Virus record (IMG/VR): IMGVR_UViG_3300032219_002227
Location: 32,001-96,000 of that record
Origin: a virus
Lineage: Duplodnaviria; Caudoviricetes
Direction: 5' to 3' (one strand)
Length of the DNA stretch: 64,000 nucleotides
Positions within the stretch are counted from its first letter, which is position 1, and each line of letters begins with the position of its first letter. Shown in pieces: positions 20,161 to 32,145 of this stretch. Position numbers and translations under genes: made by a program. The notes below the pieces were generated by a model, which worked only from the letters and a program-made list of their open reading frames with translations, was not told the origin of the DNA and did no database searches.

Positions 20161-20700
20161 ATGCCAAAATTACGTCGACTTAAAGCAGATCCACTTAATA
20201 GAATCATCACAGTAGGATATATCGATGCAGATTCAATCAACGATATCATCCAACTTATATATGAAATTAACGAAGAAGACGTTAAAAAAACGCAAGTAGA
20301 ACCGATAAAATTAATAATTAATTCACCTGGCGGAGAAGTATATAGCGGTTTAGCTTTAATTGATGTAATTGATAATTCATTAACCCCTATATATACAGTA
20401 TGTCATGGTGCTGCAATGTCGATGGGATTAATAGTATACGCTGCTGGACATAGTAGAATAGCAAGTAAATACGCTACATTTATGTATCATGAATCGCATT
20501 ATGAAATAAATGGAAAAGTAACTACTCATAAACAAGAAATAAAAGAAACAAATCGTACTGAAAAAATATGTGATGACTATTTACTTTCTAAAACAAAACT
20601 TACTCTAGCTGTATTAAAAAAAGTTAAAAGTAAACAGGAAGAATGGTATTTTGATGTAAATACTGCTAAAAAATATGGACTAGTAGACGAAATTATTTAA
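20161..20700 (+). CDS. clpP: ClpP-family protease subunit
   Basis: INSPGG.V, AAMSMG (catalytic Ser), FMYH (His), A.KYGLVD. Confidence 0.9.
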   Translation: MPKLRRLKADPLNRIITVGYIDADSINDIIQLIYEINEEDVKKTQVEPIKLIINSPGGEVYSGLALIDVIDNSLTPIYTVCHGAAMSMGLIVYAAGHSRIASKYATFMYHESHYEINGKVTTHKQEIKETNRTEKICDDYLLSKTKLTLAVLKKVKSKQEEWYFDVNTAKKYGLVDEII

Positions 20701-23893: not shown

Positions 23894-24205
23894 ATTAGTT
23901 ACTGTTCTTTGACATATAAGGAGAAACAAATTATGGAAACACTATCATTCATTTTAGGGATAGCGTTTGTGGTGGTTATTGCTATTGCAGTAGTTGCTGT
24001 TTACGCTTTCGTTAGGGTAAATAAAGTAAAAGAATATTTAGAAAGTACAGAAAGGCACTTTAGTCATGAAATAAGTAATGTTTATCAAGAAATGGCAAGT
24101 CGTACTGATGATATTACTCGTTCAATGGACTCACGTTTTGATAAATTAGAAAATAAATTAACAAATAACAAATAAAAAATAAATAAGTCAAAGACAGTAA
24201 CTAAT
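23894..24205. repeat. 19/20-bp inverted repeat flanking one CDS; left arm contains a boxA-like site
   Basis: ATTAGTTACTGTTCTTTGAC (23894-23913) vs GTCAAAGACAGTAACTAAT (24187-24205), one-base bulge. Confidence 0.8.
23933..24175 (+). CDS. N-terminal TM + coiled-coil protein
   Basis: METLSFILGIAFVVVIAIAVVAVYAF...SRFDKLENKL; ATG at 23933 preferred over upstream TTG. Confidence 0.7.
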   Translation: METLSFILGIAFVVVIAIAVVAVYAFVRVNKVKEYLESTERHFSHEISNVYQEMASRTDDITRSMDSRFDKLENKLTNNK

Positions 24206-24215
24206 ATTTATATAT

Positions 24216-24544: not shown

Positions 24545-24929
24545 GGGGATAACCGGTATCGATCCGGATGTAGAGGTAATACTACATGCAGGCATTTGAG
24601 TATACTGCCTTAGAAGATACTAAACAATAAACGCTGAAGAATTATCTTCATTCACTTTCGAAGATGCAATGTCTTTCGTTGGTGCTGATTACGCAGTAGC
24701 TGCCTAATCAAACACGGGTAAGTAACCTAGGAACAGAACTACTTTGAGTATTCACGATCGACTCATTAAATAAGGACTGTGGATTAGTTTCTTGATGTCA
24801 TAAATCAAGTGGTGGAAACGACCATAACGGTCAGCCCTACTGATCAGATTCGTTCAGATCTAAGCATGTGAGACGTTAGTATTATTGTCTCTTTCGGAGA
24901 CGTGGGTTCGAATCCCACTATCTCCACCA
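24545..24929 (+). ncRNA. ssrA: tmRNA
   Basis: GGGGATA/TATCTCC acceptor with G3-U70, T-arm GTGGG-TTCGAAT-CCCAC, encoded ACCA end; ATAAAC then tag ORF 24633-24707 AEELSSFTFEDAMSFVGADYAVAA*. Confidence 0.95.
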
Positions 24930-24936
24930 AAACAAA

Positions 24937-25218
24937 ATGTGGCCGAATAAATTCTTGAGAGGGATTAAGGCACTGGCTAGATAGCTGAAAAGCTATTGAG
25001 TTGGGTTTCACAGACAGATGAGTTAAAACCACCAACATTAAGGGTAGAATGCGCAACCCGAAAGTGCTCTGGATACGCCGAAGATAAATCATGACGATCT
25101 CCGCAGGCGTTGTTAGTAATCAATCTAACTAGTCTTAACACTTAGACTGATCATCTTTGTGGACTATGGGTGAAAAGGGGTCTGTCCAAGGATTATGGGT
25201 AATCGTTACTCCCATCAA
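24937..25218 (+). ncRNA. Unclassified structured RNA candidate B
   Basis: About 280 nt non-coding, GC-richer, multi-stem (TAGCT-GAAA-AGCTA; ACGCC/GGCGT; CACAGACAGATGA/TCATCTTTGTG; TGGAC/GTCCA; ATGGG/CCCAT), followed by a terminator. Confidence 0.6.
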
Positions 25219-25223
25219 TTTAT

Positions 25224-25253
25224 AGGCAACCAGAAATGGTTGCCTTTTTTTTT
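25224..25253 (+). terminator. Rho-independent terminator
   Basis: AGGCAACCA-GAAA-TGGTTGCCT + T run. Confidence 0.9.
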
Positions 25254-25303
25254 ATTTTGGGCAAAATATTTTATTATATTTAAATAAATAAATTAATTAA
25301 ATT

Positions 25304-25519
25304 ATGAAAAAGATTATGGTAATTGCTGCTAGTATGTTTTTGGCCTCTTGCGGCGGGTCATCTGAAAGTCCAGTATCTACTGATTCAACTGTAGTAGATT
25401 CTATTACAGTTTTAATTGATTCAGTAGCAGTAGCTGATTCATCTGTTGGAGCTGCTCAAGGTAACGGTGACATTACAGGAGGAAGTGGTCAATCTCCTCA
25501 TGGAGTGCCTGTAAAATAA
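25304..25519 (+). CDS. Small lipoprotein
   Basis: MKK + hydrophobic + FLASC lipobox; DS-repeat tail. Confidence 0.75.
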   Translation: MKKIMVIAASMFLASCGGSSESPVSTDSTVVDSITVLIDSVAVADSSVGAAQGNGDITGGSGQSPHGVPVK

Positions 25520-26256: not shown

Positions 26257-27000
26257 ATGAAGAATCTATCTAAGGAAGAATTACTTAGTAGACTCGAAGC
26301 AATTAATAGAAGCAATGCTATTATCTATTTTGACCTTGATGGGTACATCTTAGGAGTAAATGCTATCTTTTTAAAAGCAATGGGATACGGAGATGAAGAA
26401 CACAAGCAACTCATCGGAAAACACCATAGTATATTTGTTACTTATGAATATTCAAAGTCTACTGAATACCAGGAATTTTGGAAAACATTAAGAAGTGGTA
26501 GATTCTTTGAAGGCGAGTTTGAAAGAAAGAAAGTAGATGGTAGCCCTATCTATTTACAAGCAACATATAATCCTATCTTTGATGAAAGCGGTACCATCAC
26601 TAAGGTAATGAAGATTGCTACTGACATCACAGAAACAGTAGTCAGTAAAAATAAGATAGATGCTCTTTCTAAAGACCTACAGGCTGAATTAGATAAATCA
26701 CAGCAATTAAAAAATGCAATTGAAGTAGAAAAAAACGCTGCTTTAAATGATTTGGATGTGTTGATGAAGAAAAGTCAATCTGAGTTAATTAAGACAATTG
26801 TAGTGGTTGCTTTGATAGTAATTGTAGGAGTAGGTGTTGTAACAACTATGTTATATTGGATGGCTATGATCACGGGTAAAGACACACAGATTATTGGCTC
26901 GACTTGGAGTAATATGTTTAGTGTATTATTGACAAATGCATTCTCAATAGTTGGAACAATTATGGGTATAAAATATGCCACTCAAGATAAACAAAAATAA
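26257..27000 (+). CDS. PAS/PAC-domain protein with coiled coil and two C-terminal TMs
   Basis: AINRSNAIIYFDLDG.IL..N..FL..MGY...LIGKHHSIFV...FW..L..G.F..GEF.R...LQATYNPI.D..G...KVMKIATDIT (chemoreceptor-type PAS). Confidence 0.85.
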   Translation: MKNLSKEELLSRLEAINRSNAIIYFDLDGYILGVNAIFLKAMGYGDEEHKQLIGKHHSIFVTYEYSKSTEYQEFWKTLRSGRFFEGEFERKKVDGSPIYLQATYNPIFDESGTITKVMKIATDITETVVSKNKIDALSKDLQAELDKSQQLKNAIEVEKNAALNDLDVLMKKSQSELIKTIVVVALIVIVGVGVVTTMLYWMAMITGKDTQIIGSTWSNMFSVLLTNAFSIVGTIMGIKYATQDKQK

Positions 27001-27051
27001 AAATAAAAAAATAAATATTACTAAAAATTAATATTTATAACAAAATAAATT

Positions 27052-27651
27052 ATGGACATTAATAAATTAAAAGGACATATCCCAGACAGCGTTATAACAC
27101 AACTTCCAGACACAATTGCTAAATTTGAATTGAACACTCCGTTACGTTTAGCTCACTTCTTAGCTCAAGCAGGTCATGAATCTGGTGGATTTAAAGCAGT
27201 AAATGAAAACTTAAATTATGGTGCTAAAGGTTTGTTAGGTATATTTAAAAAATATTTTCCAACTCCTGAAAAAGCAGCTTTATATGAGCGCAAACCAGAA
27301 AAAATTGCTAATCTAGTTTATGGTGGTAGAATGGGTAATGGTCCTGAAGCATCAGGTGAAGGATATAAATTTCGCGGACGTGGATATATCCAGTTAACAG
27401 GTAAAGATAACTATAAAGCATTTGACGCTGTAGTATCTGAAGCTATTGTTGATAATCCAGATTTAGTTGCTACTAAATATCCATTGTTATCTGCTGCTTG
27501 GTTCTTCCATAAAAATGGATTACATAAAATTGCAGATAAAGGTGCTACTGATGCTATAGTAACAGAAGTTACAAAGCGTGTAAATGGTGGTACTATTGGT
27601 TTAGCTGACAGAATTAAACATTTTAAAGAATATTTTGCTTTGTTAAAATAA
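27052..27651 (+). CDS. Glycoside hydrolase family 19 endolysin
   Basis: AHFLAQ..HES, ENLNY, FRGRGYIQLTG..NY, VNGG..GL..R. Confidence 0.92.
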   Translation: MDINKLKGHIPDSVITQLPDTIAKFELNTPLRLAHFLAQAGHESGGFKAVNENLNYGAKGLLGIFKKYFPTPEKAALYERKPEKIANLVYGGRMGNGPEASGEGYKFRGRGYIQLTGKDNYKAFDAVVSEAIVDNPDLVATKYPLLSAAWFFHKNGLHKIADKGATDAIVTEVTKRVNGGTIGLADRIKHFKEYFALLK

Positions 27652-31515: not shown

Positions 31516-32145
31516 ATGAAATACCTACTTACACTACTTATGCTTATTAGCATAGCGTTTGCTCAAGACACAATTACAATTGTACATAAAGCGTACAAGA
31601 CAACTTATAGTAAATCCAAAAACTACCCTGTTAAGGTAGAATGGTGGTTAACTAAAGCAATGGTAAGTTGTCCTACTAAAATAAAGCGAACAGATAATTT
31701 TGGACCTGATCCAAAACAAATAGCAAGTACCAACTTGCAGCAATATTATAATAACTCCGGTTACGATCGTGGTCATAATTTTCCTGCTGCAGATGGTGCT
31801 TGTGATGTTATTAGTATGACTGAGTCGTTTTATTTTTCAAATATGACTCCTCAAACACCTCAATTGAATAGGGGTGATTGGAAAATGGTTGAGGAATTAA
31901 CTCGTATAGAAGCACTACAAGATGATTCAGTACACGTTTGGGCTGGATCTGTAGGTGAAATAAAAAAAATAGGTAAAATGGCCATACCTAAACAATGCTG
32001 GAAAGTAATTTATGTTAAGAAAACAAATGAATGGTTCGCATTTTTATTCAATAATGATAATACTAGAGCAAACGGTATTAATGATAATAAAGTTGAAGTA
32101 AAATTGATTGAGCAAATCACAGGTTTTAAATTTAAAGCTAAATAA
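31516..32145 (+). CDS. Secreted-type DNA/RNA non-specific endonuclease
   Basis: Signal peptide MKYLLTLLMLISIAFA; YDRGH, SNMTPQ...LNRG.W..VE. Confidence 0.9.
   Translation: MKYLLTLLMLISIAFAQDTITIVHKAYKTTYSKSKNYPVKVEWWLTKAMVSCPTKIKRTDNFGPDPKQIASTNLQQYYNNSGYDRGHNFPAADGACDVISMTESFYFSNMTPQTPQLNRGDWKMVEELTRIEALQDDSVHVWAGSVGEIKKIGKMAIPKQCWKVIYVKKTNEWFAFLFNNDNTRANGINDNKVEVKLIEQITGFKFKAK

Follow-up and report, generated by a model that had tools for sequence, protein, structure and literature searches.

A conserved non-coding RNA of uncultured large phages, encoded among tmRNA and tRNA genes and probably a distant relative of manA

In the stretch of 64,000 nucleotides analysed here (positions 32,001 to 96,000 of the Caudoviricetes record IMGVR_UViG_3300032219_002227; hereafter, the window), positions 24934-25221 are a real non-coding RNA gene with a conserved fold, a member of a so far uncatalogued family found in large uncultured phages (Table 1). 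On balance, the interpretation that we favour is that of a free-standing gene whose product, a structured non-coding RNA of some 288 nt, is a distant and enlarged relative of the manA RNAs, binds to itself and is co-expressed with phage tRNAs or tmRNA. Its fold, its relationship to manA, the self-complementarity of two of its loops and its genomic neighbourhood are the focus of the present analysis; the three other explanations that have to be weighed, namely an RNA unrelated by descent to manA, a tRNA-like processing element and a cis-acting riboswitch, are discussed together with the evidence that bears on each of them.

The virus record from which the window is taken spans 173 kb, carries direct terminal repeats and has a G+C content of about 30%. 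A preliminary description, made from the letters of the sequence, had recognised a non-coding, G+C-richer segment lying between the CCA end of a tmRNA and a strong terminator, and all the elements of this picture were recovered: the tmRNA, whose CCA end is followed after a 4-nt gap by helix P1 of the RNA; a G+C content of 42% over 24934-25221 compared to 29.7% window-wide; and the 25224-25245 stem with its U run, beginning 2 nt past the 3' strand of P1. A protein-coding reading of 24934-25221 was rejected, the stop-free stretches being short, no frame being consistent and the variability showing no 3-nt codon periodicity. The tag of the tmRNA is unusually long (24 residues, AEELSSFTFEDAMSFVGADYAVAA), and a similar long tag, ending in YALAA or YAVAA, is found in relatives; as to the wider neighbourhood, a ClpP-family protease gene is located at 20161-20700, 4 kb upstream of the RNA, while downstream, at 26257-27651, a gene for a PAS-domain protein lies immediately 5' of a GH19-type endolysin gene.

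The single-sequence fold of the RNA is only marginally better than that of shuffled sequences (z = -1.83); the case for structure therefore rests on the comparison with relatives. A neighbouring protein, used as a lead, gave ten related phage loci, among which the RNA is present in two distinct sequences (L002/L003 and L005); five related phages (L004, L006, L008, L009 and L011) have the same tmRNA without the RNA. Three pattern scans based on conserved blocks located the RNA on about 34 IMG/VR contigs and on 36 metagenome contigs; a scan of 185,579 prokaryote species genomes, cultured or binned, with an exact pattern gave no match, and BLASTN of the RNA element against 50,697 phage records matched nothing. 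A covariance model (R1) identified 60 copies in the fetched loci, 54 of them distinct, and a single copy in the 173-kb genome of the window. The search for homologs, suggested in the preliminary description as a check on conservation, thus returned 60 loci with 54 distinct sequences and a covariation-supported fold; moreover, the independence from tmRNA that had been postulated there for this structured RNA is borne out by the relatives that keep the tmRNA without it and by other loci which carry it apart from the tmRNA. In two of the relatives the slot after the tmRNA is occupied, in place of the RNA, by an ORF with HNH-endonuclease motifs (CxxC ... HH ... CRNCH; L008:4808-5270 and L011:644-1100), an observation which suggests that the post-tmRNA site is a hotspot for gene exchange.

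Table 1. Features of the RNA gene and of its immediate surroundings (positions of the window)
Feature	Position	Strand	Remarks
tmRNA gene	24545-24929	+	ARAGORN, 24-residue tag; Rfam RF00023, 69.1 bits
Whole structured RNA	24934-25221	+	288 nt, from P1 5' strand to P1 3' strand; covariance model R1, 334.7 bits; covariation
P1, 5' strand AAAAUG	24934-24939	+	pairs with 25216-25221, one A.A mismatch
J1/2 dinucleotide UG	24940-24941	+	UG in 54/54 distinct sequences; aligns to 'GUG' of the manA consensus
P2	24942-24971	+	GCC/GGC closing pairs, GAAUA / AA internal loop, 7-bp hairpin (24950-24956/24960-24966)
P2 loop GAGA, candidate pseudoknot 1	24957-24960	+	with UCUC 25098-25101; 100% paired
P3	24974-25003	+	helices 3 and 4; UGGC/GUUG plus AUAGCU/AGCUAU hairpin with GNRA cap GAAA (24987-24990)
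P4, 5' strand GACAGAU	25013-25019	+	long-range partner 25180-25186
P6 arm	25032-25072	+	helices 7-9; terminal loop Y with palindrome UGCGCA at 25050-25055
P7	25075-25110	+	helix 10; ACGCC/GGCGU; large loop contains CGAUCUC (25095-25101)
P8 hairpin	25112-25129	+	helix 11; GUUAG/CUAAC, 8-nt loop; 3/5 pairs covary
P9 arm	25130-25166	+	helices 12 and 13; UAGUC/GACUA plus CACUUAG/CUUUGUG; loop X with palindrome UGAUCA at 25148-25153
Purine-rich strand GGGUGAAAAGGGG	25168-25180	+	invariant or nearly so in 46 sequences
P4, 3' strand GUCUGUC	25180-25186	+	partner of 25013-25019
P5	25195-25215	+	helix 14; 5-bp hairpin, 11-nt loop, directly adjoins P1 3' strand; 100% paired
P5 loop AUCG, candidate pseudoknot 2	25202-25205	+	with CGAU 25095-25098; 97.7% paired
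P1, 3' strand CAAUUU	25216-25221	+	partner of 24934-24939
Intrinsic terminator	25224-25254	+	9-bp stem, GAAA loop, then U run; hairpin part 25224-25245

RNAalifold on 46 sequences, together with a model-based alignment of 60, gave a fold of 14 helices, over which 97.6% of the cells are paired in the 54 distinct sequences. Compensatory change is seen in 45 of the 64 pairs, as against 9-18 in slid controls, and none of 500 shuffles reaches the observed value. The closing helix P1 is weak in the clade of the window, whereas elsewhere it extends to 9-15 bp with quite different sequences (overall range 6-15 bp); its pairs 1, 2, 4, 5 and 6 are formed in 80-100% of the 54 sequences. P2, corresponding to helices 1 and 2, is paired in 100% and 99.5% of the cells, with covariation in 8 of 10 pairs, and helices 3 and 4 of P3 covary in 9 of 10. 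P4 (helix 5) is 99.1% paired, three to five of its pairs covarying depending on the analysis (5/6 at most), and encloses some 160-165 nt comprising the arms P6-P9 and several near-invariant single strands; within this domain GGU at 25169-25171 may pair with ACC at 25028-25030, as modelled in helix 6, which is invariant throughout.

The GAAA-tetraloop hairpin noticed in the preliminary description is indeed found, with covariation, at 24981-24996, and a 3' hairpin that it had listed corresponds to P5, paired in every cell. Its long-range pairing between CACAGACAGATGA and TCATCTTTGTG, supposed to enclose the inner stems, did not survive the comparison: 77% of the cells pair in the 54 distinct homologs, a value reached by 458 of 500 column shuffles, and change on both sides is limited to one pair, so that covariation rules out this enclosing helix and assigns GACAGAU to its true partner, GUCUGUC at 25180-25186. 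Three further candidates were discarded. A short manA-like P4 (AUCUUUG/CAAGGAU) shows, by eye, wobble changes and breaks only, with no compensatory pair, and clashes with the well-supported P9 and P4; UGUG/CACA (24938-24941/25009-25012), predicted on 12 sequences, is not kept in clade 2 or in L032; and the apparent covariation of loop X with the strand 5' of P6 is due to an alignment offset in clade 3.

The CGAUCUC sequence of the P7 loop is the common target of two candidate pseudoknots. In the first, with the P2 loop, one pair alternates between G-C (40 sequences) and A-U (13), in several clades; in the second, with the P5 loop, one pair is U-A (45) or C-G (9), a change that may be a single event, which makes the support for this contact weak.

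Searched against Rfam at gathering thresholds, the locus returns tmRNA and tRNA only and the RNA matches no family. In particular, cmscan over 24850-25320 and over 24932-25222 gave no match up to E = 10 to RNase P, SRP, GOLLD, ROOL (RF03087) or 6S; the comparison with GOLLD, ROOL, 6S and RNase P had been proposed in the preliminary description, whose statement that RNase P and SRP signatures are lacking agrees with this outcome. Its term 'unclassified' holds as far as no family reaches its gathering score, and has to be qualified by a sub-threshold relationship to manA (RF01745). Indeed, among the Rfam matches that span the structure, manA ranks first for representatives of three clades: the window (20.1 bits, E 0.005), L057 (24.8 bits, E 1e-4) and L037 (30.9 bits, E 2e-6), the last being aligned over the full-length model with a 169-nt insertion placed in P4; in a fourth representative, L032, the match is confined to P5 (13.8 bits). 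The window also gives a local match to BjrC1505 (27.3 bits), which covers mainly the terminator. The gathering score of manA is 55.2 bits, which none of the four representatives reaches, and the RNA is by Rfam's own criterion not a manA member; the true manA of P-SSM2, taken as the reference architecture, scores 181.6 bits with RF01745. In the reverse direction, the best match of model R1, searched with filters off, is this same P-SSM2 manA, at 9.4 bits and partly out of register.

The manA alignments of the three clades agree in their registers, namely P1, GUG, P2 with GAAUAA and UAAG, the GNRA hairpin, and P5 followed by P1. Both RNAs are phage-borne and share the succession of P1, UG and a P2 consisting of a GAAUAA/UAAG internal loop and a hairpin, a 2-nt J2/3, a GNRA-capped hairpin in P3, a P4 helix, and a 5-bp P5 with an 11-nt loop starting with UA (UA...A.U), directly adjoining P1. 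The differences are concentrated in P3, P4 and the loops. While P3 of manA is multi-branched, with three hairpins (GUGGUG, GNRA and ACCA loops), the RNA has the GNRA hairpin only (24974-25003), and the first and third P3 hairpins of the manA model are deleted in all three alignments (window, L037 and L057); P4 of manA is a short hairpin, in place of which the RNA has the domain of about 165 nt formed by P6-P9 and conserved single strands. Moreover, in our own reading of the manA consensus, the P4 loop UACUGUA complements the P5 loop UACAGUA; this complementary pair is absent from the RNA, which has two self-complementary loops instead and whose P5 loop matches CGAU of the P7 loop.

Taken as a whole, this resemblance makes it quite likely that the RNA is real, if distant, kin of manA. 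Against a shared core stand scores far under 55.2 bits and the weak reverse match, and convergence on common RNA modules may account for the likeness. The corresponding alternative describes a monomeric RNA, unrelated by descent to manA, which would act by protein binding, as a decoy or as a ribozyme; the GNRA hairpin, the UAAG-type loop and the 5-bp hairpin beside the closing helix would be convergent modules, and the palindromes sites for dimeric proteins or the product of chance. In its favour are the sub-threshold manA scores, with a reverse match of only 9.4 bits, and a conserved sequence of about 165 nt without manA counterpart; moreover, the strand GGGUGAAAAGGGG recalls the J11/12 region of bacterial RNase P. 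It is nevertheless an unlikely explanation, given that manA is the top structure-spanning match in three clades with P1, UG, P2 and P5 in the same registers, that neither RNase P nor any other family reaches E = 10, and that self-complementarity is kept through change in two loops and not in five others, a pattern easier to reconcile with RNA-RNA pairing than with a fixed protein site. The specific idea of an RNase P S-domain was dropped, as no RNase P family, be it through the P4 catalytic core GAGGAAAGUCC ... or any other part of the models, lends it support up to E = 10.

The two loops in question are loop X, capping P9, and loop Y, capping P6. Loop X reads UGAUCA in 41 and UAGCUA in 9 of the distinct sequences, two paired changes through which the palindrome is retained, and is palindromic in 50 of 54, as against 7.8 expected from shuffled loops; in L046 and L076 it is replaced by a longer insert. 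Loop Y reads UGCGCA in 33 sequences, UGGCCA in 9, UGUACA in one and AUGCAU in one, besides G.U-tolerant variants, and is palindromic in 44 of 54 (49 when G.U pairs are allowed), where shuffling predicts 5.2; in five clade-2 sequences its self-complement is G.U-tolerant or 4-nt only. No such enrichment is found in five other loops. Palindromes that vary in sequence and yet stay self-complementary would be the signature of homotypic kissing-loop contacts and, read in this way, the alignment suggests that the RNA self-assembles via loop-loop contacts. Covariation as such cannot separate contacts within one molecule from contacts between two, and each palindrome switch may represent only one or two evolutionary events; as a palindrome of 6 nt is unable to fold back on itself, pairing between copies of the RNA is the simplest reading.

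At 41 of the 60 loci, the distance from the RNA to a tRNA or tmRNA on the same strand is no more than about 60 nt. In the window and in L014, L020, L043, L046, L069 and L074 the RNA is immediately 3' of tmRNA; in clade 3 it is flush between two tRNAs (for example Gly/Asn or Gly/Ala), while in clade 2 it is immediately 5' of tRNA-Arg or tRNA-Thr. Neither a terminator nor a downstream ORF is present in clades 2 and 3 or in L013; most clade-1 homologs carry terminators of unrelated sequence 3' of the RNA. In L005, L013, L021 and L022 the RNA is found apart from tmRNA, behind its own promoter-like box, and elsewhere a promoter-like box (TATATTTATA...) and a terminator of its own are present. These tRNA and tmRNA contexts, together with the promoter-like box and the terminator found elsewhere, lead to the conclusion that the RNA is an independent gene travelling with tRNA-type genes.

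Several recurrent elements accompany the gene. An A/T box, TATATTTATA(TA)CA, occurs 5' of the RNA and of ORFs at many loci (window 24205-24212; L002:4735-4750) and may be the promoter of the phage group of the window; it resembles the -7 promoter element of Bacteroidota type (TAnnTTTG). A different box, GTTCTTTGACAT, is found directly 5' of P1 in clade 2 (L037, L038 and L044) and, in L041, 5' of an ORF downstream of tRNA-Met; in that phage group it probably serves as a promoter or a regulatory element. In L005 (4860-4910), L012, L016 and L018, a conserved hairpin of some 50 nt (GUACUUAGCACAG ... CCCAGGCUAAGUC) is interposed between the promoter-like box or the tmRNA and the RNA; it is absent from the window. 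Finally, in L032, on the minus strand, a tRNA-like sequence with a 7-bp acceptor-like stem and a T-arm GGGTTCGAATCCC follows the RNA after about 25 nt, with no ARAGORN call.

In the window, since the nearest promoter-like box is at 24205, a single transcript comprising the ORF, the tmRNA, the RNA and the terminator is likely; the co-transcription with tmRNA and the release by tmRNA 3' processing that were envisaged in the preliminary description would fit the 4-nt spacing and the flush, tRNA-flanked relatives. On this view, the upstream ORF, the tmRNA and the RNA would probably share one transcript, from which maturation of the tmRNA 3' end would release the 5' end of the RNA, and the 3' end of the RNA would be defined by the terminator that follows it. 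Where the RNA is flanked on both sides by tRNAs without a gap, its release is probably due to tRNA maturation, with RNase P and tRNA 3' processing as the activities that would excise it.

The association with tRNAs lends itself to another explanation, in which the RNA is a processing element or tRNA-like spacer, whose P1-P5 stack mimics an acceptor/T-arm minihelix and which, with no self-assembly, recruits or titrates RNase P, RNase Z or tRNA-targeting defence nucleases. The topology does match that of a tRNA (a closing helix, two nucleotides, UG, inner arms, and a 5-bp hairpin adjoining the 3' strand of the closing helix), and the RNA is flush within tRNA arrays; P1, however, ranges in length from 6 to 15 bp, the 11-nt loop of P5 lacks the T-loop consensus, neither ARAGORN nor the Rfam tRNA model makes a call, and the two palindromic loops are left unexplained. 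We therefore hold this explanation to be improbable.

The neighbourhood also bears on a regulatory role in cis. Canonical manA is located in the 5' UTRs of pur, manA or psb genes of marine cyanophages, as in P-SSM2, where it precedes purL/hsp20 with no tRNA nearby, whereas the present RNA belongs to tRNA/tmRNA arrays or is a terminated stand-alone gene. It was for manA in 5' UTRs that the role of riboswitch candidate was first proposed (Weinberg et al. 2010, PMC2864571), and in the window the terminator lies only 2 nt past P1; by analogy, a ligand-sensing fold could act as a riboswitch or attenuator, controlling the terminator at 25224-25245 and hence the downstream small membrane and lysis genes. 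Terminator sequences, however, vary freely among the homologs, with no conserved alternative pairing, and the RNA lies between or before tRNA genes in clades 2 and 3, which, like L013, lack both terminator and downstream ORF. The riboswitch reading fits poorly with terminators that lack conservation and with the many copies devoid of a downstream ORF, and we regard it as very improbable.

Returning to the favoured reading of a free-standing, self-binding relative of manA, the RNA would act in trans rather than in cis, and the most likely mode would be the pairing of the two exposed palindromic hairpin loops between copies, as homotypic kissing loops; a monomer with two contacts of this kind would be expected to give either chains or closed oligomers with an even number of copies. 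The assembly would be analogous to the kissing-loop cages of manA, ROOL and GOLLD. For manA, a cryo-EM study has reported decamers and a 60-mer cage, assembled via kissing loops and a GNRA-receptor contact (bioRxiv 10.64898/2026.07.01.735769); deposited manA models include 23NT and 24QD. ROOL and GOLLD, described as phage RNAs that are 'often near tRNA islands', have been reported to form cages or homo-oligomers by kissing loops and A-minor contacts (PMC12286853). ROOL (RF03087) and GOLLD resemble the present RNA in being orphan RNAs of phages or prophages that often adjoin tRNA islands, and differ in being 2-3 times larger and in that their assembly has been shown, that of the present RNA being only proposed. 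A further parallel, in genomic setting and in maturation, is offered by the species 1 and 2 RNAs of phage T4 (rnaC and rnaD), stable, small RNAs (~120-140 nt) of unknown function, which are encoded within the tRNA cluster of the phage and mature from the precursor of its tRNAs; the T4 RNAs are smaller, with no sequence similarity to be expected.

The more specific proposal, in which the RNA is the building block of a multimer made of RNA only, joined by two homotypic kissing loops into a closed even-numbered ring or cage or into a chain, and co-expressed with tRNAs and tmRNA, is put forward tentatively, its chances being in our estimate somewhat short of even. As to function, the proximity of tRNA and tmRNA genes hints at the translation machinery or at tRNA metabolism, components of which might be sequestered or scaffolded; this is a guess from context.

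For 15 years manA has been an orphan riboswitch candidate, and RNA-only cages were reported in 2026; if the kinship proposed here is correct, the manA core exists also in a much larger, free-standing form, wedged among tRNA and tmRNA genes. The neighbourhood of the RNA is that of the cage-forming ROOL and GOLLD, and three orphan phage RNA classes would thereby be tied to one context. The two palindromic loops provide a simple, mutable handle on whether self-assembly is selected. If the proposal is true, this RNA, manA, ROOL and GOLLD would represent a general phage strategy, in which RNA compartments or scaffolds are built around the translation machinery.
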